From Candidatus Margulisiibacteriota bacterium (lineage in GTDB: Bacteria; Margulisbacteria; WOR-1; O2-12-FULL-45-9): a stretch of DNA of 52,932 nucleotides. Of the stretch, positions 3,722 through 52,932 are shown one piece after another. The stretch is from assembly GCA_036448795.1 (NCBI GenBank), contig JAZFXQ010000057.1, forward strand, positions 1 to 52,932. The letters are read 5' to 3'. Within the stretch, counting starts at the first letter, position 1. Each line of letters opens with the position of its first letter. Below the pieces are notes generated by a model. That model was not told the DNA's origin. It made no database searches and saw only the letters and a list, made by a program, of their open reading frames with translations. A program made the translations under genes and the position numbers.

Positions 3722-3751
3722 ATTATACTTGATTTTGGGAAGGCTTGTCAA
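3722..3751 (-). promoter_or_regulatory. candidate sigma70 promoter for yceD-rpmF-plsX
   Basis: Reverse strand reads TTGACA (3751-3746), an 18-nt spacer, then TATAAT (3727-3722). The -10 lies only 11 nt from the GTG at 3710, and the -35 overlaps the recombinase stop codon. Confidence 0.35.
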
Positions 3752-4635
3752 CGACCGGACCGGGGGTGAGCCGCGTCATAGACCTCTTTGAGGCGCTCTT
3801 TGGTGATATGAGTGTAGACCTGAGTGGTGGAAAGCGAGACATGTCCCAGAAGCTCCTGGACCATTCTGAGATCTGCTCCGCCAGAGAGCAAATGGGTGGC
3901 AAAAGAATGGCGCAGGGTGTGGGGGGTCACTTTTTTATTAAGCCCAGCTTTTTTGGCATAAAAAGTGATCATTCGCTCCACCGAACGGGGGGTCAAGCGG
4001 CCTCCCCGGCGGTTAATAAAAAGAGCTGGCATCTTTTTGCCTGAGATCAAGTGAGATCGTCCTTCTTTTATATATTTATGTAAAGCAGCTCGGGCGTGGG
4101 ATCCAAAGAGGACAATCCGCTCTTTGGACCCTTTTCCTAAGACCTTGATCTCGCCCTCATCGAAATCAATGTCATTCATGTTCATTCCAATGATTTCGGC
4201 CACACGCAGTCCCGTCCCGTAGATAACCTCAAGAATCGCTCGATCCCGCAAGCCCTGTGGCGATTTCTGGTCAGGGGCTTCCAGCAAGGATTTTAACTCT
4301 TCCGGATAGAGGAAGTTTGGAAGTTTTCGTGGCAGCTTTGGGGTCAGCAGATTTTGAAAAGGATCTTGCTCGACCAGCTTCTCGCGTATCAAAAAGCGAA
4401 AAAAAGAGCGTGCCGAGGAGAGCTTGCGGGCGATTGATCTTCGGGAATATCTTTTCTTTTCGAGTGCCAGAAGATAATCTCTGGCGGCAGAGCGATCTGT
4501 CTTTTTGCCTTTTAGAAAATTAGTCAGGAACCTAAGGTCTCGCTCATAGTTGCTGATAGTATGTGAGGAATAATTGCGCTCGGTTTTGAGAAAATTAATA
4601 AATTTGCAAATCAGTTCCTTCTTAAAAAAATTCAA
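3748..4635 (-). CDS. tyrosine site-specific recombinase, XerC/XerD type
   Basis: 295 aa with an N-terminal SAM-like core-binding domain. C-terminal HTLRHSFATHLL, GADLRMVQELLGH and TTQVYTH supply the R-H-R-Y catalytic residues. Confidence 0.85.
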   Translation of the reverse strand: MNFFKKELICKFINFLKTERNYSSHTISNYERDLRFLTNFLKGKKTDRSAARDYLLALEKKRYSRRSIARKLSSARSFFRFLIREKLVEQDPFQNLLTPKLPRKLPNFLYPEELKSLLEAPDQKSPQGLRDRAILEVIYGTGLRVAEIIGMNMNDIDFDEGEIKVLGKGSKERIVLFGSHARAALHKYIKEGRSHLISGKKMPALFINRRGGRLTPRSVERMITFYAKKAGLNKKVTPHTLRHSFATHLLSGGADLRMVQELLGHVSLSTTQVYTHITKERLKEVYDAAHPRSGR

Positions 4636-4649
4636 AATAATTTCTCCTT

Positions 4650-6173
4650 TTACAGCCCTTCCCCTGTGCCTTGAGCGTCCTTCAATTTGTTTTGCTTGTA
4701 ATAAAGCAGCCTGAGATTAAAGCAAACATTGTTATTTGAAGGATTAATTGCTAGTTCTTTCCGAAATTCCTCTTCGGCTTTTTTGAACATATTTTTCTTC
4801 ATATAAACAAGTCCCAAATTATTGTGAACCATTGGTTCTTGGGGGTTTAGTTCAAGAGATTTTTTGTATTTTGATTCAGCTTTATCTGGTTGTTCCTCTA
4901 AATAATACATTGTGCCCAGGTTTCGGTGGGCCAGTGATGAATGGGGTGAAGTCTTGACAGCATTTTCCCAGAAGTTTAATCTGTTTTTGAAGTTTTTGCT
5001 ATGGTTAAAAGTTATTATTGTTAAAAGGACAAGGACGATCACCGCTCCCAAAATTGGCGAACTATTTTTTTTCGCACTTAAATTTTTTATCATGTCAGTT
5101 TCTAGCAAAATGATAATAAAGCCAATGATGGGCAAATAAATTCTGTGTTCTATAAAGTAAGCGACGATTGCCGGATTTGGTTGAATAAAGGAGGGTAGCA
5201 GGAAAAGAATAAACCAAAACGATCCAAAAATAATGAAATTATAACATTTGTTTTTTGAGAGAAAGAGAGCGATGGTTAAAAGAGTTATTGCAATAAATCC
5301 GTAAACAAAGGTTGTGTCTTGAATTATGGGTAAAACCGACAAATTAAAAGGCAGAAGAATTTTGCCAATGTATTGAATAATTGCAGGGAGGTTCCCCAGC
5401 AAAGATCTTACCATGTTAGAGGGCGTCATTTTTATTGGATTTGCTAGAGCAGCATGCCGAAGGAAAAACCAAAGAGTTATTATGGTAAACCAACCTATTG
5501 CAAACAATTTTTCGGTAGAAGAGAATAACCTCTCTTTTGTGATCAAATGAAGATATAAAACACACATTATGATCAAAACAAGGGCGGATTCTTTTGTAAA
5601 AAGCGCTAGGGCGAAAAAAAGCAAGTGCCACAAATAAGATTTCCCATTTTTAGTTTCTAAAAAATTCAAAAACGAGATAAAAGCCATGAGTATAAAAATG
5701 GTCAGCAACGAATCATTTCTTCCTGGAATCCAGGCTACTGCTTGCGTTAATACTGGATGAACAGTAAAGACTAAAGAAAAAAATAATGCCAGCTCTTTTC
5801 TATACTTTAGCTTTATCAAAAACATAAAAAGCAGGCAGGCAGCTAAGAGATGGATATTTATATTTGTGAAATGATAGATAAAAGGAGAGGCACCCCCTAA
5901 TTGTGCATCCAGCATAAAGGATATGGTCAGTAAAGGACGATAATAGGCCTCAAAACACTGGGACGAATGAAATGCGTCTTGCCTAAATACTTGAAAGACA
6001 TTTGATGAACTGGTTAAAAAAGGAAGTTTTTCTAAAATTAAGATGTTATCGTCTAAATAAGTGAAATTAAAAAACAGGGTCTGTGAATATAGGAGCAAGC
6101 CTATGAAAATTATCCAAAAATAGGGATGCCAGGTTTTTAAAAATGTTTCTTCAACCCAGTTTCCTTTTGACAT
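4650..6173 (-). CDS. multi-pass membrane protein with C-terminal TPR repeats (TMTC/DUF1736-like putative glycosyltransferase)
   Basis: About 10 hydrophobic segments, an HPVLTQAVAWIPGRNDSL motif, and C-terminal TPR units (AHRNLGTMYY.., HNNLGLVYMK..). The gene is visibly more AT-rich than its neighbours. Confidence 0.65.
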   Translation of the reverse strand: MSKGNWVEETFLKTWHPYFWIIFIGLLLYSQTLFFNFTYLDDNILILEKLPFLTSSSNVFQVFRQDAFHSSQCFEAYYRPLLTISFMLDAQLGGASPFIYHFTNINIHLLAACLLFMFLIKLKYRKELALFFSLVFTVHPVLTQAVAWIPGRNDSLLTIFILMAFISFLNFLETKNGKSYLWHLLFFALALFTKESALVLIIMCVLYLHLITKERLFSSTEKLFAIGWFTIITLWFFLRHAALANPIKMTPSNMVRSLLGNLPAIIQYIGKILLPFNLSVLPIIQDTTFVYGFIAITLLTIALFLSKNKCYNFIIFGSFWFILFLLPSFIQPNPAIVAYFIEHRIYLPIIGFIIILLETDMIKNLSAKKNSSPILGAVIVLVLLTIITFNHSKNFKNRLNFWENAVKTSPHSSLAHRNLGTMYYLEEQPDKAESKYKKSLELNPQEPMVHNNLGLVYMKKNMFKKAEEEFRKELAINPSNNNVCFNLRLLYYKQNKLKDAQGTGEGL

Positions 6174-12953: not shown

Positions 12954-14201
12954 ATGAGGAAGATTTTAGTTTCGCTACTCCTGCTTTTATTTTTTACCTC
13001 TCTGGTGAAAGCTGGGATTTTTATCTCTGAACCTAAAGATAAGTTGATCACCTTTAACGAAGTTGTGATGCTGCGTGGGGCGTCAAAAGAATTAGATATT
13101 CTCAAGGTTAATGGGCAAAAAATAAAATTTGAGCCGGACGGATCTTTTTCCTGCGGTCTGGTTCTGAAACCCGGCAAGAACTATGTCGAAGTGCGGGCCC
13201 TGGATAAAGACAAGAATCATTTTGTCAAGAAAATCCGTATTTTAAGGCTAAAGACCTATCCGGACATGGAAATCCTCTATGATGGAAAAAAGCATTGGGC
13301 GCGCAACCAAGTTATATATCTTTCCAGTCTGGGATTTATTGAAGGGTATCCCGATAACTATTTTTTCCCGGGGAATCCGATAACCCGGGGGGAATTTGCC
13401 ACTTGGATCGCTCGCATAAAGGGGTTCAAGATACCGATTTTGACCGAGGATGTGTTTTTTGATGTTCCGAAAGAACACTGGAGAGCCCCTTATATTAAGG
13501 TGGTCGTGGATGCCGGCTTTTTGAGCGGCTATACTAATGAGACTTTTGGGATTGATGATCCCATTTCTCGCCGCGAAGCCGCGCAGGTTACGGTGGTCAC
13601 CGAAGGTCTCAGTGTGGGTGAGAAAATAAGGTCATTCTTTATCGATGTCCCAAGGGAGGAAGAGGGAGCTACCCCGATTTATGTTGCAGGCGAAAAAGGA
13701 TTGGTAAAGGGGGTTTATGAAAACATCCCGGTTTATGATCCAGATCGAGCTTTGACTCGAGCAGAAGCGGCGGTGTTGCTGGCTAGATTCGCGCGTCCGA
13801 TTAACAGCATACGCTACTTATTTGATTTTGGGAGGGGTTTTTCAGAAGTAAATTATTGCAGTCTGAATGTTCCTCCGGAGGTTGTTTATTTTTGGACTGA
13901 ACCCGGCAGAATACGCCGCGCAGAAAGGACAACGGTTAGAGTGCGGGCGCAAATTGCTTCGCGGGAAAGGTTCCTGCCTATTTCCACCGTTAAGGTTAAC
14001 CTGTCGGAGGTTGGGGGAGTACCCGACACCAAGATGTTTGATGATGGTACCCACGGAGATGAGGAAAAAAATGATCTTATTTATTCGCTCAATCTTTCTC
14101 TGGAACCTAAAGTGAGTGGGGCCAAAGTTCTAATAGTTACTGCGGTTGACCAGTTAGGGTGGGAAGGCAAAAGGCAAACCTCGCTGTTGATAGTCGAATG
14201 A
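12954..14201 (+). CDS. secreted SLH-domain protein with Ig-like domains
   Basis: Signal peptide, an N-terminal Ig-like segment, three SLH repeats (FFPGNPITRGEFATWIARI; FFDVPKEHWRAPYIKVVVDAGF; DPDRALTRAEAAVLLARF), and a C-terminal Ig-like domain with DDGTHGDE. Confidence 0.8.
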   Translation: MRKILVSLLLLLFFTSLVKAGIFISEPKDKLITFNEVVMLRGASKELDILKVNGQKIKFEPDGSFSCGLVLKPGKNYVEVRALDKDKNHFVKKIRILRLKTYPDMEILYDGKKHWARNQVIYLSSLGFIEGYPDNYFFPGNPITRGEFATWIARIKGFKIPILTEDVFFDVPKEHWRAPYIKVVVDAGFLSGYTNETFGIDDPISRREAAQVTVVTEGLSVGEKIRSFFIDVPREEEGATPIYVAGEKGLVKGVYENIPVYDPDRALTRAEAAVLLARFARPINSIRYLFDFGRGFSEVNYCSLNVPPEVVYFWTEPGRIRRAERTTVRVRAQIASRERFLPISTVKVNLSEVGGVPDTKMFDDGTHGDEEKNDLIYSLNLSLEPKVSGAKVLIVTAVDQLGWEGKRQTSLLIVE

Positions 14202-15832
14202 TGAGAAACCAACTAATTTTCATATTTATTTTGTCATTTGTCATTCTGGCGCTGCCTACCCATGCTCAATTGGGAGGGCTGGGGATTAATCCTTTTGACA
14301 TCGAGATCGGAAGTAGGCCGCTTGGAATGGGAGGGGCTTTTGCCGGCTTGGCGGATGATATGAATGCGGCCTTTTACAATCCGGGCGGGCTGGCTTGGGC
14401 AAAAGGGATTTCACTCAGCCTAAAAGATTTTGGGAATATTTCAGCAGTTCAAGCTTATCCCACTGGGTTTGGTTCCTCTCTTGGATTAGCAGTTATTACA
14501 AGTAAAATTTCGAATATTCCAATTCCCGCAGGTTCTGCTAATTCCAATAGTAATATCATCAGCCTCTCCTATGGGACAAAGCTGACCTTTTTGCCCGGCC
14601 TTTATAAAAGGCCTTTTTTTCAGCGCCTGGGGTTGGGCTTGAATATAAAAGGGTTGATGGGGCAGACTTTGAGGAGGACCGATGAGCCGGATCGCTCAGC
14701 AACCGGCTGGGACATGGATGTGGGGGTATTGTGGAAGGGAGAAGAATGGTGGTCAGCGGGGGTATCTTTGCAGAATATTCTTCCAGCCAAAACCTTAGGG
14801 GGAGGGATAATCAAGTGGGATGTTGGCGAGGAGGAAGGGATTCCAGCTGTTGGGAAGTTATCGGCTTCGGCTCGGTTAATCGGAGATATTGGTTCACCCA
14901 TTTTTATGGAAGGGAGAGAACTGCTTTTGGGTGGCGAGCTCGATTTTTCCAGGAATCGACCGATGCTGCTGCGTCTGGGAGCGGAGTGGAATTTTGCAAA
15001 AAGATATTATTTTAGAACAGGTTTCATGCAGCAGTATCAAAAAATCGGAATTTCTTCTGATATAAATTTTGGAATGGGTCTCCGTTTTGAGAGATGGGGA
15101 CTTGATTTTGTGAGTTACAGAGAACCCATTCAGGACGAACGCTTTTTCTGCGCCTCATTTCTTTATTTTCCCAAGGAATGGATAGTGGTTAGAAAACTGG
15201 ATGTTGAGAAGCCGGCGGTTATGATCGAGAGACCGATCGAGATGATTTCCCTTGAGGATAATATTGTTACTTATGATGATAAGATCGAGGTTTTTGGCAA
15301 GGTCAAGCCGGGTGTGGAGGTTTATATAAACGGTTTAAGGGCTTCCTTGGGTCCGGACAATTCCTTTAAGACCGTGGTTCCCCTGCGCCTGAAGAAGAAT
15401 CTGATTGTAGTAGAGGCGCGCTACGAGGGCGAGAAGAAAGTGTGGAAATATAAGGTGCTCAGGAAGGCCAGGGTGAAGATTGCTGATGAGGAAAGGGTTA
15501 AGGATTTGGAAGAGAAAAAAGAGGCGGTGGAGTCTTTGGTTACCATGGGTGTGATCGAAATAACTCCTGAGGCAGAATTTGTAATGGAGGCCGGGGTCAC
15601 CCGAGGAGAGCTTTCGAGCTGGCTGGTAAAGGCTTCAGATATGAAACTGCCGGAGGTCAAAAAAGACCTTTTTGCAGACGTTCCCAAAGAACATCTCTTG
15701 GCTCCCTATATCAAGGTTGTTACTGATTTAAAGTTGTTGCTCCCCTTCCCAGACGGGACTTTTCGGCCGGGAGCAGTTGTTTCTAAGGAAGAGGGAGATG
15801 CGATTTTTGCGAAGTTTGGAGTAGCCAGATGA
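14198..15832 (+). CDS. outer-membrane beta-barrel-like protein (PorV/FadL-like N-terminus) with Ig-like domain and C-terminal SLH domain
   Basis: I chose the start at ATG 14198, which forms an ATGA overlap with the upstream stop. Signal peptide ..LALPTHA|Q. GSRPLGMGGAFAGLADDMNAAFYNPGGLA is followed by alternating barrel-like strands. The C-terminal FADVPKEHLLAPYIKVV..FPDGTFRP is an SLH repeat. Confidence 0.72.
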   Translation: MMRNQLIFIFILSFVILALPTHAQLGGLGINPFDIEIGSRPLGMGGAFAGLADDMNAAFYNPGGLAWAKGISLSLKDFGNISAVQAYPTGFGSSLGLAVITSKISNIPIPAGSANSNSNIISLSYGTKLTFLPGLYKRPFFQRLGLGLNIKGLMGQTLRRTDEPDRSATGWDMDVGVLWKGEEWWSAGVSLQNILPAKTLGGGIIKWDVGEEEGIPAVGKLSASARLIGDIGSPIFMEGRELLLGGELDFSRNRPMLLRLGAEWNFAKRYYFRTGFMQQYQKIGISSDINFGMGLRFERWGLDFVSYREPIQDERFFCASFLYFPKEWIVVRKLDVEKPAVMIERPIEMISLEDNIVTYDDKIEVFGKVKPGVEVYINGLRASLGPDNSFKTVVPLRLKKNLIVVEARYEGEKKVWKYKVLRKARVKIADEERVKDLEEKKEAVESLVTMGVIEITPEAEFVMEAGVTRGELSSWLVKASDMKLPEVKKDLFADVPKEHLLAPYIKVVTDLKLLLPFPDGTFRPGAVVSKEEGDAIFAKFGVAR

Positions 15833-16773
15833 AAATCCGAAGTCCGAAATCCGAATATCGAAATAAATCCAAAATCCCAATTTCCAAACTGGTCATTGCA
15901 GTCTTGGTCATTATTTCATCATTCTGGCTTGGTCATTGGTTATTGGTTGCGCCAGCATATGCGCAGAAAAAGGCGGAAGCCGAGGAAAAGCTAACGAAGG
16001 GCGAGGCGGTCATGTACATTTCGGCCACGGATTTCATGAAGAAGAAGATCGGGGAGCTCCTTTCTTGGACCATCGGCTATGATATCTCTAAGGTGAGCCG
16101 CATAAAACTCACCCCAACCATTAATTATGTCATGGCTATTCCGAAAAGGGTTCCACCGGATGGAAGGACCATCCTTGAAATCGTGGCTTCAGTGGATAAT
16201 CCGGGAGGTCTGAAAAATATTGCGGGGGTCAGAGCAGACTTAAGCTCTATCGGACGGCTTCCGAATACCATGCTTGTGGATAATGGTCTCTTTGGTGATA
16301 AAAAAGCATCTGACGGCATTTATACTTTGCAAACTAGTGCTTCCCCAAAGATTGAACATGGAGTGAAGGAGGTGCCGGTAGCAGTTGCCAACAAAAAGGG
16401 ATGGCTGGCCCTTGCCAAAACAACCTTGGATATTAGAGTGAATCCGGTTATAATTGAGGCAAGGTTTGCGCCAGATAAGGCACGTGCTGGGAGCTCTGCT
16501 CCGGTTACCCTTACGATTAGGATTGACAATCCGGGAAGAATTGAGGACTTGAAGAAGGTCACAGCGGATTTAAGATCTTTCGGGTATACCGAGCTGGCGT
16601 TGTTGCGAAACGATGGCCGGGGAGGGGATGCAGTGGCTGGAGACGATATTTTTACTTTGCGATTTGTGGTGCCTGAGTTTGTGAGCGAGGGGGAATATAA
16701 CATAAGGGTGGGAGCTTCAAACCTGGCTGGGGGTTACGGATTTGCAGATGTTGTTTTGAGGGTTTATAGATAA
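15829..16773 (+). CDS. signal-anchored surface protein with two Ig-like domains, function unknown
   Basis: ATGA overlap with the upstream stop. N-terminus MKIRSPKSEYRNKSKIPISKLVIAVLVIISSFWLGHWLLVAPAYA|Q. Two repeats contain ADLSSIG..DNGLFGDKKASDGIYTL and ADLRSFG..NDGRGGDAVAGDDIFTL. Confidence 0.65.
   Translation: MKIRSPKSEYRNKSKIPISKLVIAVLVIISSFWLGHWLLVAPAYAQKKAEAEEKLTKGEAVMYISATDFMKKKIGELLSWTIGYDISKVSRIKLTPTINYVMAIPKRVPPDGRTILEIVASVDNPGGLKNIAGVRADLSSIGRLPNTMLVDNGLFGDKKASDGIYTLQTSASPKIEHGVKEVPVAVANKKGWLALAKTTLDIRVNPVIIEARFAPDKARAGSSAPVTLTIRIDNPGRIEDLKKVTADLRSFGYTELALLRNDGRGGDAVAGDDIFTLRFVVPEFVSEGEYNIRVGASNLAGGYGFADVVLRVYR
15833..15949 (+). repeat. two degenerate heptanucleotide arrays (AAATCCG-type, then TTGGTCA-type) encoding the N-terminal signal anchor
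   Basis: First array, 15833-15860: aaatccg aagtccg aaatccg aatatcg. Continuation, 15865-15885: aaatcca aaatccc aatttcc. TTGGTCA-type units: ctggtca at 15889, ttggtca at 15904, and ttggtca ttggtta ttggttg at 15929-15949. Confidence 0.7.
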
Positions 16774-48424: not shown

Positions 48425-49222
48425 ATGTTTATAATGAGAAATAGTGTGCGTGCGGCCGGACCCAGGATTGCTTCCGGTAAAGAGATGAACGCAGATCAAT
48501 TATGCACTGCCCTGAAAAAAATACACAGGGGGGCGTCGCCCTGGATCTTTAACGCAACCGTTAGAACCCAGACCTCGCCTTTGCAACTCCGTCGGCTTGA
48601 CACTCGATCCTGCTATTGGATTGCCTCGGCCATGCCGATTAAGTTTAGCAGGTTTCTTGAATTCTTATCCGGCCTCAAAGGGAAACTCTTCAAGGCCTGG
48701 CTGATCTATGCGGGAAAAGAAAAGATCGAACACGAAGTTACTCTTACAAGTTCAGGGGTAAGCCTGGACGGGAGCCCTCACCAAACCAAAGGGCTGCCAG
48801 AGGGACTCGAGCTTGTTCGCCAGCAAGCGCCTGCTCTGATCAAAGGACAGACTTATAAGATCGGCATGAATGCGGGAGCGATTATTTTAGGCGAGCCGAG
48901 CGAGCATGGGCTGGGAATCGAAGCAAAATTACAGAAGATAGGGGTGAGCTCTTCATCATCCGGGTCGGAATCCAATCATTTTATGGCGGGAGTCACCGAT
49001 CTTGAGCAATTTCAAAGAGCTTTGTCGCCTCTGCTTGAGAAATCTGACTTCTTAGGACTGGAATTCGTTCAGCCCGCTTTATCGGTGGTGGTCAGAGAGG
49101 CCCGCATTTATCATGATCGGGTGAGAAAAAGTTTTTCTTGCGAATGTATTTTAGAGCCGGTGGCGCCTGAGATCGAGCGCAATCTGTTCAATGCGCTCTT
49201 TGATTCTGATACCAGGTCATAA
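48425..49222 (+). CDS. hypothetical protein (265 aa), no recognisable domain
   Basis: ORF downstream of motif site D. It is convergent with, and overlaps by 35 nt, the 3' end of 49188-50360. Confidence 0.5.
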   Translation: MFIMRNSVRAAGPRIASGKEMNADQLCTALKKIHRGASPWIFNATVRTQTSPLQLRRLDTRSCYWIASAMPIKFSRFLEFLSGLKGKLFKAWLIYAGKEKIEHEVTLTSSGVSLDGSPHQTKGLPEGLELVRQQAPALIKGQTYKIGMNAGAIILGEPSEHGLGIEAKLQKIGVSSSSSGSESNHFMAGVTDLEQFQRALSPLLEKSDFLGLEFVQPALSVVVREARIYHDRVRKSFSCECILEPVAPEIERNLFNALFDSDTRS

Positions 49223-50360
49223 GCTCAAATCTGATCGGAATATTTTCTAGGCAGTGTCCCGCCTCAGCCATTCTATTCTCCAAAGAAATAATCTCCCGGT
49301 TAATTTCGGTTCGGGTCAGATCTTTAAGGATTTTGCCGGAAGCGGAGATCGGGGTAGAGGAAAGGAGAAGACGGCGAAGAAGCTGCCGGATTGTCATTTG
49401 ATGCCCGTAAATATTTTCAAAATCAAATAATCGTTTGTGGGTCACAATGCGAATTTCGTAATTACCTTCTTTAATATCCTTTTGGTAAAGGCTGGGAAGA
49501 TCGAAGTTTTCAGGGTTTAAAAGAACGTCTTTCTGGGAGAGGGTTTTACGGTTTTTCCCCTTATATTGACTGCCCAATCCCAGGAACTGGAATATGAAAT
49601 CACCGAAACCGTAGCCATTATCGCCTTTTATTTCAAATATGATCAAGCGGCCGCTGTCCCGGTCCCGGCCGATAATGTCAAAAAACTCGATCTGGTTTAA
49701 GCTCCCCTTTTGAGAGAGAGTGGCATTGGCGTTCACAATTTCTATGTTTGTGTTTTGACCGATGTAAAGAATGGCTCTCAGCTCAGTGATCGCCCCTACG
49801 ATGTCGAAGTTGGTTATGTGGTTTGCAAGCAATCGATTGAGATATTTCTTAAAAAGGCCGTTGGTATTTTCCTCGGATAAAATCTTCAGGGCGTGAATGG
49901 CGTCCTGTAGCCAATCCTCGGTGAATTTTCCGCCTAATTTGTTCTGGATCCTCTGCTCAAAAGAGAGGGGTTGGGATGCAGCTGGAGAGGCGTTGTCATA
50001 AATGTCTAATATGCCTTGTAAGGGGCCTTGCGCCTTCTTTGCTAATTTATTTATTCTGCGATTATTTATTTGTATGCCTTGAACTTTATGCTCTAATATT
50101 TTTTCCAAATTATCTATGTGTTTGGGGAGCTTACTATGATCAAAAAATCTTGCGGGTAATGAATCTTTATCTAAGATTGCTGTTAATTTGTCAAATTTAG
50201 GTGCAAGTATTTTATGCGTTCCGAAAAGTTCAAGACCTTTAAGCGCAATGGTTTCCAGTCTGTCTCTTCGGATTGTATGGGGAGAGATAGCAGGCACGCT
50301 GCGCAATTTTAGCTGCGGGGTTGAATTTAATTTTCTGGCACCATTTAAGGATCCGGCCAT
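49188..50360 (-). CDS. hypothetical protein (390 aa) with a PD-(D/E)xK-like nuclease motif
   Basis: Start at ATG 50360 (MAGSLNG..), with GGAGGAG 8 nt upstream; the ORF-track start at 50393 is TTG and lies inside the promoter motif. The core IEFFDIIGRDRDSGRLIIFEIKG fits D-x(n)-E-x-K. Confidence 0.55.
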   Translation of the reverse strand: MAGSLNGARKLNSTPQLKLRSVPAISPHTIRRDRLETIALKGLELFGTHKILAPKFDKLTAILDKDSLPARFFDHSKLPKHIDNLEKILEHKVQGIQINNRRINKLAKKAQGPLQGILDIYDNASPAASQPLSFEQRIQNKLGGKFTEDWLQDAIHALKILSEENTNGLFKKYLNRLLANHITNFDIVGAITELRAILYIGQNTNIEIVNANATLSQKGSLNQIEFFDIIGRDRDSGRLIIFEIKGDNGYGFGDFIFQFLGLGSQYKGKNRKTLSQKDVLLNPENFDLPSLYQKDIKEGNYEIRIVTHKRLFDFENIYGHQMTIRQLLRRLLLSSTPISASGKILKDLTRTEINREIISLENRMAEAGHCLENIPIRFELMTWYQNQRAH

Positions 50361-50383
50361 CTTGTGACTCCTCCTGCATATAT

Positions 50384-50411
50384 ATATCGTCAAATTTCGC
50401 TCGAAATTTCA
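50384..50411 (-). promoter_or_regulatory. sigma28-like promoter motif (site B)
   Basis: Reverse strand reads TGAAATTT cgagcgaaattt GACGATAT atatatgcaggaggag, 23 nt before ATG 50360. Confidence 0.6.
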
Positions 50412-50438: not shown

Positions 50439-51533
50439 ATGTGGGCTGAAGATGATCTAAAGTTCATGCGCGATGTCCTTTCTTTGGCCAAATCCGCTGA
50501 GGGCAGAACCGCCCCGGATCCTTTGGTGGGGGCGGTCTTGGTCAAAGATGGCAGGATTATTTCCATGGGCTATCATGGAGAGGTTACTACTCCTCATGCG
50601 GAAGAATGGGCTATCCAGAAGGCAGGCAAAAATGCCAGGGGGGCCATTCTTTATCTTAACCTGGAGCCCTGCTGCCATTACGGGAATAATCCTCCCTGCA
50701 CGGATCTAATTATTGGCTCGGGCATAAAAAAAGTAGTTGCCTCAATGAAAGATCCGAATCCCCTGGTAAATGGAAAGGGCTTCAGGAGTTTGAAACGGCA
50801 TGGCATCAAAGTCAGGGTGGGCCTGTTTGAGAAAGAGGCCACGAAATTAAATGAGGTCTTCATTAAATATATCACGACCAAAAAGCCTTTTGTGGTTTTA
50901 AAGTCCGCTATGACCATAGATGGGAAGATCGCCACTCGAACCGGAGCCAGCCGCTGGGTAGCCTCACTTACTTCTCGGAAATATGCTCATCACCTGCGCA
51001 ATATCTACGATGCGATCCTGGTGGGAGAAGGAACGGTTTTGATCGATAATCCCAAACTCACGGTTCGCCTGGTCAAGAGAATTAAGAACCCTATTCGGAT
51101 CGTTTTGGATGCCTATGCGCGAACTCCCCTGAGGGCCAATGTTTTGAATACCAGAGGGGCGAAGACCATTATTGTAGTTGGCCCCAAGGCCCCCAAAAAG
51201 AAGGTTCGAGCCCTGGAGAACAAAGGAGCTGAGATCTTAAGGCTTTCCGCGCCCAAGGGGAAAATTGACCTAAAGGCCTTGATGAGGAAACTGGGGAAGA
51301 GGCAGATAACCAGTCTTCTGATCGAAGGGGGCGGAGAGGTGAATGCCTCTTTTTTTGAGTCAGGCCTGGTAGATAAAGCCATCTTTGTGGTTTCCCCCAA
51401 GATCTTTGGTGGACGGGATGCCAAAACCCCAGTTGAAGGGGAAGGAATAAAGCTTCCCAAACAGGCTATCTGTTTGAAAAACACCCATCTTGAGCAGGCG
51501 GGCGAAGATATTTTAGTTACAGGCTATCTGTAA
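50439..51533 (+). CDS. ribD: bifunctional riboflavin biosynthesis deaminase/reductase RibD
   Basis: The deaminase zinc site is HAEEWAI...PCCHYGNNPPC. The reductase domain has TIDGKIATRTG and LLIEGGG. Confidence 0.9.
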   Translation: MWAEDDLKFMRDVLSLAKSAEGRTAPDPLVGAVLVKDGRIISMGYHGEVTTPHAEEWAIQKAGKNARGAILYLNLEPCCHYGNNPPCTDLIIGSGIKKVVASMKDPNPLVNGKGFRSLKRHGIKVRVGLFEKEATKLNEVFIKYITTKKPFVVLKSAMTIDGKIATRTGASRWVASLTSRKYAHHLRNIYDAILVGEGTVLIDNPKLTVRLVKRIKNPIRIVLDAYARTPLRANVLNTRGAKTIIVVGPKAPKKKVRALENKGAEILRLSAPKGKIDLKALMRKLGKRQITSLLIEGGGEVNASFFESGLVDKAIFVVSPKIFGGRDAKTPVEGEGIKLPKQAICLKNTHLEQAGEDILVTGYL

Positions 51534-51534
51534 T

Positions 51535-52812
51535 ATGTGCTACGCCATCCCCGGAAAAGTAGTAGAAATCTCCGGAAAAACTGCTGTGGTCGATTACTTC
51601 GGAGAAAAAAGAAGGGCCATAAATGAGCTGAAAAGCTTGAGGATCGGGGACTTCATTTATGCTCAGGGGGGATTTGTGATCTCCAAAGTCTCCGAGGCCG
51701 AGGCCAAGCAGATCCTGGATATGTGGCGGGAGATGTTTTTCGCCCTGCGAAAGACCGACCTCCGGCTTTCCCGCTTGGAATTTGATGATATCGGAATTGA
51801 CCGAAAGTTTGCCCTTATCCTGGATAAAGCCGCGGAAGGAATGCCGCTTAAAAGAGAGGAGCTCCTCCGCCTTTTGCAGGCTAATAATCGAAGGGAGCTG
51901 AACCTGCTCTTTAAAGTCGCTAACTTCCTTCGCCAGAAACACCTGAAGAATGCCTGCTGTGTGCATGGAATTATTGAGTTTTCCAATCATTGTCAAAATG
52001 ACTGTGTCTATTGCGGCATTCGAAAGAGCAACGCTTCCCTGCCAAGATACCGCATGTCTGAAGAAGAGATCCTCCAGGCCGTGGGCGAGGCCGTAAATAA
52101 GCATGGATTTAAGGCCCTGGTCCTTCAGTCAGGAGAAGACCCCTATTTTACTCCGGATAGGTTAGCCGGGATCATAAAGGAGATCAGGGAGAAGTTCGCG
52201 GTTCTCATATTTATTTCGGTGGGAGAAATAGGAAGGAAGGGGTTAACCAAGCTATACCAGGCCGGGGCAAGAGGAGTGCTTTTGCGTTTCGAAACCAGTA
52301 ATTCGGAATTGTACTCTAAGCTTCACAATAAAGACAGCTTGGAAGACCGCCTGCAGGATTTGAGGGATGCTTTTGAACTGGGCTACCTTATCCTGACCGG
52401 GGGATTGATCGGGCTTCCAGAACAAACTGAAGAGGATTTATTGAATGATATTTTGCTGACCAAAGAGCTAAAGGCTGAAATGTATACTTCCGGACCGGTC
52501 CTTCCGAAGGGCCCCAAAAGCGAATTGGTCTTAAAAGTCCTGGCAGTCAGCAGAATCGTTGATCCGGAGAACGCGAAGATCGTGGTCACTACTGGTTTTG
52601 AGACCCTGGATCAGGATGCCCGGCGTTTGGGTCTTCTGGCTGGCGCAAATTCCATGATGCTTAATGTGACTCCCATGAAATATCGAAGATTTTATAATAT
52701 CTATCCCGATCGAGCGCATGTAAATGAGAAAATTGAAGATCAGATTAAGGATGCTTTGGAAATTCTTTATTCTTTGGGAAGAGCCCCTACGGATTTAGGA
52801 GTTTCTCAATAA
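51535..52812 (+). CDS. hydE: fusion of a HypC/HupF-like domain (aa 1-~72) to a HydE-type radical SAM [FeFe]-hydrogenase maturase
   Basis: The N-terminus MCYAIPGKVVEISGKTAVVDYFG...GDFIYAQGGFVIS is the HypC signature with Cys2. It is followed by IEFSNHCQNDCVYCGIRKSN (CxxxCxxC), VLQSGEDPYF and a BioB/HydE-like TIM barrel, with no stop between the two parts. Confidence 0.78.
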   Translation: MCYAIPGKVVEISGKTAVVDYFGEKRRAINELKSLRIGDFIYAQGGFVISKVSEAEAKQILDMWREMFFALRKTDLRLSRLEFDDIGIDRKFALILDKAAEGMPLKREELLRLLQANNRRELNLLFKVANFLRQKHLKNACCVHGIIEFSNHCQNDCVYCGIRKSNASLPRYRMSEEEILQAVGEAVNKHGFKALVLQSGEDPYFTPDRLAGIIKEIREKFAVLIFISVGEIGRKGLTKLYQAGARGVLLRFETSNSELYSKLHNKDSLEDRLQDLRDAFELGYLILTGGLIGLPEQTEEDLLNDILLTKELKAEMYTSGPVLPKGPKSELVLKVLAVSRIVDPENAKIVVTTGFETLDQDARRLGLLAGANSMMLNVTPMKYRRFYNIYPDRAHVNEKIEDQIKDALEILYSLGRAPTDLGVSQ

Positions 52813-52932
52813 TTGCGAGGGTTTCTTCAACCTGGAAAGGCTTCTTGATGATCCCGTCAACTTTGTATTCTTTTCCCACAATTTCAGCCACATCTTCATT
52901 TATCCCGGTTAAGAAAACTACCGGGATCTTAG
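52787..52932 (-). CDS. response regulator receiver domain, C-terminal part only (runs off window)
   Basis: Reverse-strand reading gives ..KIPVVFLTGINEDVAEIVGKEYKVDGIIKKPFQVEETLAIIEKLLNP*, the typical beta4-alpha4-beta5 (K-P-F) end of a REC domain. It overlaps the hydE 3' end by 26 nt. Confidence 0.5.
   Translation of the reverse strand, partial: KIPVVFLTGINEDVAEIVGKEYKVDGIIKKPFQVEETLAIIEKLLNP

Follow-up and report, generated by a model that had tools for sequence, protein, structure and literature searches.

The contig JAZFXQ010000057.1 of a Candidatus Margulisiibacteriota bacterium (assembly GCA_036448795.1), analysed here over its positions 1 to 52,932 (the whole stretch of 52,932 nucleotides, hereafter the window), carries a gene that joins parts of two hydrogenase maturation systems. 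These systems, HypA-F for [NiFe] hydrogenases and HydE/F/G for [FeFe] hydrogenases, are taught as unrelated machineries. The gene (51535-52812, plus strand) is one unbroken open reading frame (ORF) of 425 amino acids plus stop, with an ATG start, a TAA stop and no internal stop codon or frameshift. It encodes a HypC-like domain followed by a radical S-adenosylmethionine (SAM) enzyme that belongs to a clade of HydE. The best reading is that the protein would be a [NiFe]-hydrogenase maturation factor assembled from [FeFe]-type parts.

The N-terminal part (residues 1-72; 51535-51750) has the features of a HypC/HupF-like oligonucleotide/oligosaccharide-binding (OB) fold. It passes the gathering cut-off of Pfam HupF_HypC (PF01455; residues 1-64, 58.0 bits versus 28.5) and the cut-off of NCBIfam hypC_hupF (TIGR00074; 55.3 bits versus 48), and a sequence search of the PDB retrieves Thermococcus kodakarensis HypC (2z1c; E=4e-12, residues 1-70). 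The protein starts with MCYAIPGK, so that Cys2 (codon TGC, 51538-51540), the N-terminal cysteine through which HypC proteins bind iron, and Pro6 are both present. The C-terminal part (residues 95-418; 51817-52788) is a HydE-type radical SAM TIM barrel. Pfam Radical_SAM matches residues 147-304, and the cluster motif CX3CX2C (Cys153, Cys157 and Cys160; 51991-52014) lies in the sequence CQNDCVYCG. Among NCBIfam families, HydE scores highest (TIGR03956; 234.7 bits over residues 97-399, slightly below the equivalog cut-off of 254.6), and the PDB search finds Thermotoga maritima HydE (TmHydE) with E=1e-62 over residues 101-418. Members of the same clade fall on both sides of this cut-off, either under it (P0121, 243.3 bits; P0128, 214.6) or over it (P0137, 263.4; P0140, 263.9), and triple fusions that also contain HydG exceed it (P0123, 348.3; P0130, 371). 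Other identities within the superfamily are ruled out by their scores against the respective cut-offs: PylB 139 bits (348), BioB 86 (225), ThiH 71 (380) and HmdB 56 (320.9). The original prediction, made from the letters alone, had called a HypC/HupF domain and a HydE-type enzyme distinct from BioB and ThiH; the profiles agree with both calls, TIGR03956 being far ahead of the other radical SAM families, PylB included.

An AlphaFold2 model built from 73 homologues has a mean predicted local distance difference test score of 90.9 and a predicted template modelling score of 0.90. In this model the HypC-like part folds into five β strands (residues 7-52) and then a helix. The C-terminal helix of HypC runs into the connector, forming a helical linker (residues 54-100; 51694-51834) made of helices 54-79 and 90-100. 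The barrel superposes on TmHydE with a root-mean-square deviation of 1.5-1.6 Å over 336 columns at 39-40% identity, with a template modelling score of 0.90-0.93 relative to the target (Foldseek). Low confidence is limited to the C-terminus and to residues 1-3; in the model, the latter fits the expectation of a mobile N-terminal cysteine.

The fusion is widespread. More than 120 sequence clusters share both domains, in Margulisiibacteriota/WOR-1, Omnitrophota and other lineages, and of the best 120 matches listed (66-91% identity) almost every one spans the full length and has the two Pfam domains. At the 50% identity level, the architecture occurs in about 20 clusters and is still present at about 38% identity. 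Where a source is named, it is Candidatus Margulisiibacteriota, candidate division WOR-1 or Saganbacteria or, for the more distant members, Omnitrophota or a metagenome-assembled genome (MAG) of Pseudomonadota; the independent assemblies come from ENA, JGI, NCBI and Logan. The pairing of HypC with a radical SAM domain, for which the original prediction suggested a domain-architecture search, is found widely. A missed stop, a frameshift or an assembly artefact is ruled out by the continuous frame together with recurrence across hundreds of independent assemblies, and the predicted read-through from one domain into the other holds. Two subfamilies can be told apart, one with the signature MCYAIPGK...YAQGG and a long helical linker, the other (subfamily B) starting with MCLTIP and having a shorter linker. 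The few members that seem unfused turn out to be truncated fragments, a split pair of HypC and HydE genes (L027) or free genes (P0144, P0146, P0149, L052). The clade almost always carries the N-terminal HypC-like carrier domain.

The radical SAM part differs from ordinary HydE at the site where the product is held. In an alignment of the window protein, TmHydE and about 140 representatives (25 clade members and 115 canonical HydE), Cys142 and His144, in a Cys141-Cys142-Val143-His144 motif on strand β1 (51955-51966), occur in all 25 members and are diagnostic of the clade, which is named here CxH-HydE after the invariant Cys142-x-His144. Canonical HydE proteins have His, Tyr or Phe at the first of these columns and Arg at the second in 104 of 115 (TmHydE His52 and Arg54). 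The column of TmHydE Thr134 holds Phe in 22 of 25 clade members (Phe226 in the window protein) versus Thr in 101/115 canonical sequences, and that of Arg155 holds Gly or Ala in every clade member (Gly247 here) versus Arg in 100/115. Clade-wide replacement extends to TmHydE Thr103, Tyr156, Gly226 and Val289. In TmHydE, Arg54 touches the CN ligands of the Fe2 product, and Met224 and Met291 are residues that bind the Fe(I) intermediate (PMC11826987). At the four positions associated with the CN ligands of that product (R54, T134, R155 and T269), the window protein has H144, F226, G247 and T353, and the first three are not kept. TmHydE Q107, R159, E161, M224, M291 and K309 are kept across the clade, corresponding to Q198, R251, E253, M316 (52480-52482), M375 (52657-52659) and R393, as are the CX3CX2C motif and S136 (S228). 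Every clade member therefore differs at three of the four positions that hold the [FeFe]-type Fe2 product, and a cysteine and a histidine come in.

A neighbour-joining tree computed without the diagnostic columns places all 25 clade members inside one group of 27. The exact CxH bipartition is found in 0 of 100 bootstraps, two non-CxH sequences joining the clade, with a mean Jaccard index of 0.89. Collectively, alignment and tree indicate that the fusion protein is a member of a separate HydE clade, apart from the ordinary [FeFe] maturase. One unfused CxH-type HydE gene, followed by hydG (L103, 4766-7208), stands on a contig of archaeal look, beside genes for a histone-fold protein, inositol-1-phosphate synthase and a CDP-alcohol phosphatidyltransferase, and this 13.8-kb record has no hydrogenase genes.

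The HypC-like domain also departs from its free relatives. Cys2 is invariant: it is found in 73 of 73 aligned fusions and, among HypC sequences taken from a scan of JGI metagenomes, in 39/39 from fusions and 48/48 from controls; Pro6 is likewise invariant among the 73 aligned fusions. At the column of Escherichia coli HypC His51, stand-alone HypCs from that scan have His in 40 of 48 cases, whereas the fusions have Gln in 34 of 39 and His in none. The window protein has Gln44 (codon CAG, 51664-51666). This column was placed with the HypC references of E. coli and T. kodakarensis, which served for that purpose only. Three stand-alone HypCs (L053, L065 and L096) have Gln or Asn at this position, adjoin [NiFe] structural genes and have no HypD nearby; they may be free counterparts of the fused domain.

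The scan of JGI metagenomes used an alignment of the N-terminal part, and so returned both fusion loci and a built-in control of stand-alone HypC loci. Neighbours were counted within ±10 kb of 42 non-redundant clade loci and 50 stand-alone HypC loci, with labels assigned by per-domain phmmer. Genes for [NiFe] enzymes accompany the fusion: the large subunit in 20 of 42 loci (10 of 50 in the control), the small subunit in 18 (8 in the control), the protease HycI in 11 (5), HypA in 11 (13) and HypB in 2 (8). The large subunits that adjoin the fusion bear the Ni-Fe ligand motifs RICGIC..H and DPCxxC. HydG is found in 15 of the fusion loci, three times as part of a triple fusion, versus a single control locus that is itself a truncated fusion (Fisher test, p=3e-5). 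HypD is absent from all fusion loci and present in 27 of the 50 control loci (p=8e-10); HypE and HypF are likewise found in 0/42 fusion loci versus 13/50 and 17/50 control loci, and a more sensitive profile search of the fusion loci for HypD, HypE and HypF finds none either. HydF and HydA occur in neither set (0/42 and 0/50 for both). The original prediction had proposed to weigh hydA, hydF and hydG against hyp and [NiFe] genes across the genome; at the scale of the neighbourhoods, the outcome favours [NiFe]: [NiFe] genes, HypA/HypB and HydG turn up, while HydA, HydF and HypD/E/F do not.

Gene orders vary. Three Omnitrophota loci (L015, L016 and L026) share the order group-3b-type [NiFe] hydrogenase (β, γ, δ, α)-HycI-HypA-fusion-Rex-HydG. 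Elsewhere the order is HypA-HypB-fusion-HydG (L045), HypA-HypB-[NiFe]-HycI-fusion (L037), HydG-fusion-group-4 [NiFe] (L028) or, on the 1,275,267-bp record CP070684.1, which is probably a closed genome, HypA-fusion-HydG (L019). The Pseudomonadota MAG (L101) has the fusion, HydG and HypA together. In L102 and L052, an unfused clade member directly follows the [NiFe] large subunit and precedes HydG, and HypC-HydE-HydG triple fusions adjoin [NiFe] genes in P0123/L005, P0130/L009 and L035. The fusion is often accompanied by AsrA/AsrB-like genes and a molybdopterin oxidoreductase. A canonical [FeFe] cluster (L017) has the order NuoE-NuoF-HydA-TM1266-HydF::HydG-HydE, and its HydE is unfused, of the Arg54 type and without the CxH motif. 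Among the best 120 matches listed, no HydF homologue lies on CP070684.1 (matches of at least 63% identity), and no HydG homologue appears under a Margulisiibacteriota name, most of the named ones being from Omnitrophota.

On the contig studied here, the fusion is preceded by ribD (50439-51533, plus strand), whose stop codon (51531-51533) lies 1 nt before the ATG at 51535, a spacing that suggests translational coupling. This arrangement is syntenic in Margulisiibacteriota (7 of 42 loci, all from that group) and does not occur elsewhere, and ribD probably stands outside the hydrogenase-maturation system. Downstream, the 3′ part of a convergent response-regulator gene (52787-52932, minus strand) is cut by the window end and continues on L001, a record of the same contig with 9 differences from the window in 11,398 bases. 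There, past the fusion, the response regulator is followed by rex and then by a group-4 [NiFe] hydrogenase operon (L001 11799-18247) with genes for AsrA-like and AsrB-like proteins, a molybdopterin oxidoreductase, a CooF-like protein, a tetratricopeptide repeat (TPR) protein, a NuoH-like protein and the [NiFe] small subunit. The same layout of rex and group-4 genes is repeated in L002, L010-L012, L014 and L021-L023; in L002, L011, L022 and L023 the operon extends to the large subunit (motifs RICGICSTSH and DPCYCC) and to antiporter-like subunits. This operon type matches the ‘enigmatic’ group-4 hydrogenase of Saganbacteria described by Carnevali et al. (PMC6349859), who report WOR-1/Saganbacteria to carry [NiFe] hydrogenases only. 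Their 2019 main text and supplement hold nothing usable on Hyp or Hyd maturation genes or KEGG numbers. Within this genome, the fusion's likely client is the group-4 [NiFe] hydrogenase, whose genes lie about 1 kb further downstream on the contig. The 52.9-kb window contains no further hyd or hyp genes that we could find, and its remaining ORFs, when scanned, are mostly housekeeping genes.

Taken together, these patterns point to a role of the fusion in [NiFe] maturation, which in general terms we regard as probable. The more specific claim, that the CxH-HydE clade serves [NiFe] rather than [FeFe] hydrogenase maturation through a relay from HydG to HydE to HypC, is the reading that we favour, with modest confidence. 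In this proposed relay, HydG, adjacent or fused in many lineages, is assumed to make cysteine-ligated Fe(CO)2(CN) from tyrosine, a reaction that is itself established for HydG. The HydE barrel would take up this unit and remove its cysteine by 5′-deoxyadenosyl radical chemistry, a step proposed because Q198, S228, R251, E253, M316 and M375 are retained. In canonical TmHydE, Arg54, Thr134 and Arg155 surround the cavity in which two Fe units dimerise (PMC11826987); the remodelled cavity of the fusion, with Cys142, His144, Phe226 and Gly247, would instead keep a single Fe-carbonyl-cyanide unit, and no Fe2 dimer would form. Cys2 of the tethered HypC-like domain would then receive the unit and deliver it to the apo large subunit, after which nickel would be inserted by HypA/HypB and a HycI-type protease would finish the enzyme, as suggested by the known roles of these proteins, whose genes adjoin the fusion in related loci. 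The module would probably stand in for HypD, HypE and HypF. That it replaces them entirely is doubtful, and the complete proposal, a third and hybrid route by which HydG and a remodelled HydE make the [NiFe] Fe-carbonyl-cyanide unit from tyrosine and pass it to tethered HypC with HypD/E/F fully replaced, in Margulisiibacteriota/WOR-1, Omnitrophota and other anaerobes, is put forward tentatively, as conceivable rather than probable. The original prediction named the protein as the [FeFe]-hydrogenase maturase HydE, and that identity is not supported, in view of the distinct clade with its altered product cavity, the lack of HydA and HydF in all 42 loci, the unfused HydE of L017 and the missing His51 in the HypC domain. 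Its idea of a Cys2-bearing domain as a built-in iron carrier linking the two maturation systems we count as correct, although the carrier step itself is one that we infer.

Several points weigh against the favoured relay. The HydG unit bears two CO and one CN, and the [NiFe] site one CO and two CN, so the ligand counts do not match. Among Margulisiibacteriota, no locus, the one studied here included, shows a HydG gene less than 10 kb from the fusion. The 42 loci share ancestry in part, about 14 of them being Margulisiibacteriota with common synteny. The HydG that accompanies the fusion in L015 shares 68% identity with P0293, the HydG joined to HydF in the L017 [FeFe] cluster; with this identity and a shared variant of the C-terminal motif, HydG is not visibly specialised. 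HydF and HydA do occur in Omnitrophota as a phylum. The support as a whole consists of genomic context and residue patterns.

The strongest alternative is that the fusion is an accessory to the standard HypCDEF pathway, HypD/E/F encoded elsewhere giving the cyanide and the fusion, with or without HydG, adding one step, for instance making the CO ligand anaerobically on iron held by HypC. The N-terminal motif of canonical HypC (Cys2, Pro6) contacts HypD and the large subunit, and its invariance in the fusions is what such an accessory would predict, as is the lack of a nearby HydG in Margulisiibacteriota; the mismatch in ligand counts would be eased if HypE and HypF still supplied cyanide. To our knowledge, the anaerobic origin of the [NiFe] CO ligand is a long-standing open question, and this too leaves room for a step of that kind. 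Against it stands the absence of HypD/E/F from all 42 loci, even where HypA, HypB, HycI and the structural genes are arranged around the fusion in one operon (L037, L045), loci that also have no separate HypC. Furthermore, His51 is replaced in the fusions, and HydG yields CN besides CO. We consider an accessory role unlikely.

Less probable still, and in line with the original prediction, is an ordinary [FeFe] HydE whose HypC-like domain would pass the Fe(CO)2(CN) synthon between HydG, HydE and HydF, the proximity to [NiFe] genes being due to clustering or to co-regulation by Rex. HydE is indeed the best family match, the residues for catalysis and for Fe(I) binding are kept, NCBI labels some clade members HydE, HydG is adjacent or fused in 15 loci, HydF and HydA are encoded in Omnitrophota, and rex genes and Rex-like operators lie nearby. 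However, neither HydA nor HydF accompanies the fusion in any locus, and the single canonical [FeFe] cluster examined (L017) has its own unfused, Arg54-type HydE. Of the four residues that keep the Fe2 product in place, three are exchanged throughout the clade, the recurrent neighbours HypA, HypB and HycI serve nickel enzymes only, the window protein scores under the HydE equivalog cut-off, and Saganbacteria are reported without [FeFe] hydrogenase (PMC6349859).

A function outside hydrogenases, whether another metallocofactor or sulfur product for the neighbouring molybdopterin or AsrAB-type oxidoreductase module or a role linked to ribD, is highly improbable: ribD with its nearly overlapping stop and start codons, the frequent AsrA/AsrB-like and molybdopterin oxidoreductase neighbours and the unrelated chemistry of the HydE relatives PylB, HmdB and BioB speak for it, but the ribD synteny is confined to Margulisiibacteriota, AsrA/B-like genes are the β and γ subunits of group-3b hydrogenases, L045 and L019 combine maturation genes and fusion with no such oxidoreductase, and both the HypC domain and HydG belong specifically to Fe-CO/CN chemistry.

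Like HydE (TmHydE, PDB 3iiz and 7o1o), the fusion has the full TIM-barrel radical SAM fold, the CX3CX2C motif and the substrate-site and Fe(I)-binding residues. Unlike TmHydE, it has an N-terminal HypC domain, replaces His52 by Cys, Arg54 by His, Thr134 by Phe and Arg155 by Gly, lacks the C-terminal auxiliary-cluster cysteines and has [NiFe] genes, not HydA or HydF, as neighbours. With HypC, HybG and HupF it shares the Met-Cys-x-x-(I/L)-Pro start, the OB fold with its C-terminal helix and the company of [NiFe], HypA, HypB and protease genes. HypC is a free protein of about 80 amino acids, whereas the fused domain is tethered to a radical SAM enzyme, has exchanged His51 for Gln in most sequences (34/39) and never has HypD as its neighbour (0/42 versus 27/50). 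HmdB (TIGR03957) offers a precedent for the recruitment of a HydE-like enzyme to another hydrogenase class, in that case for the cofactor of [Fe]-hydrogenase, but differs in clade, context and archaeal methanogen setting, and its profile gives the fusion 56 bits versus a cut-off of 320.9.

Fusions within the [FeFe] system provide another parallel. HydEF of Chlamydomonas reinhardtii, reportedly from the work of Posewitz et al. in 2004, is said to fuse HydE to its product acceptor HydF. HydEF, HydF::HydG (P0293) and HydE::HydG (P0152) have in common with the present fusion that a HydE-type enzyme or HydG is joined to a partner for the iron unit. In HydEF, HydE is joined to a handler of the same iron unit, which supports the HypC-like domain as an acceptor or carrier; unlike in HydEF, the partner domain comes from the [NiFe] and not the [FeFe] system. 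Among the representatives of the 50% identity clusters and one HydG match, other fusions of HydE or HydG are also seen, namely Se_S_carrier (PF11823)-HydE, HydE-CoaE, HydE-HydG without HypC and HydF-HydG (P0162, P0173, P0152 and P0293).

For a [NiFe] operon in the closed 1.52-Mb genome of Ca. Centrionella anaeramoebae, a preprint (bioRxiv 10.64898/2026.04.11.717937) lists an ‘unusual HydE-HypC fusion’ alongside the protease HybD, HypA and HypB. Compared by description only, that fusion has the same architecture and gene company as the one in the window. The preprint gives it a one-line mention, with no analysis of the family or its residues and no word on HypD/E/F or HydG, and beyond this single sentence of 2026 our full-text literature searches found no published analysis of the HypC-HydE architecture. 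The more interesting reading is that of a widespread and essentially undescribed hybrid [NiFe] maturation module, made of a HypC carrier and a HydE-type enzyme and accompanied by HydG, HypA/HypB and a [NiFe] protease, never by HypD/E/F in 42 loci. If true, this would be a directly testable alternative maturation pathway, in which tyrosine would be the source of both CO and CN in some [NiFe] enzymes, and the hybrid route would identify an anaerobic source of the CO ligand for the organisms that carry it. A smaller set of maturation genes might then suffice for heterologous group-3b and group-4 hydrogenases. It would also mean that reconstructions of metabolism in candidate phyla are led astray by database names like ‘biotin synthase’, ‘radical SAM protein’ and ‘[FeFe] maturase HydE’, with the danger, among others, of assigning [FeFe] hydrogenase capacity to organisms that have none.

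Two of the neighbouring maturation proteins show variants of their own. In five fusion loci, HypA is only 80-84 amino acids long (L009 18951-19205; L015 1182-1424; L019 8444-8686; L027 183-425; L037 4629-4877); these short forms keep the N-terminal MHE nickel motif and are devoid of the CxxC motifs of the zinc site. HypA of L045, L101 and the control locus L072 has two CxxC motifs. In HydG, the C-terminal auxiliary-cluster motif is CTAGYRC (CX5C) and not the usual CTAC (CX2C...C) in L015, L019, L026 and L028 as well as in the HydF::HydG of L017. Specialisation of HydG as a discriminator between the systems is ruled out, the two types of C-terminal motif cutting across the fusion-side and [FeFe] systems.

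The group-4 [NiFe] operons contain, at a conserved spot between the CooF-like and NuoH-like genes, an ORF of 225-229 amino acids (L002 15328-16011; L011 17019-17708; L014 10556-11233); the L002 copy, the one scanned with Pfam, consists of TPR repeats throughout. Palindromes resembling the Rex operator (TGTGAA-N4-TTCACA, at most one mismatch) are placed immediately before rex and before the gene that opens the [NiFe] operons (L001 11701; L011 12484 and 13177; L014 6080 and 6758; L016 2209). The fusion loci have 8 such sites in 584 kb and the control loci 1 in 433 kb, and in the window the fusion gene has none upstream.

Four other ORFs of the window have no Pfam match: 14159-15832 (plus), 15829-16773 (plus), 48425-49222 (plus) and 49188-50393 (minus). 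The last, of 401 amino acids and with a TTG start, overlaps the end of the 265-amino-acid ORF at 48425-49222. Finally, over 3748-6173 the GC fraction falls to 0.385 across a TPR/PMT_2 gene (4650-6173, minus), which stands beside a gene for a XerC/D-type tyrosine recombinase (3748-4635, minus).

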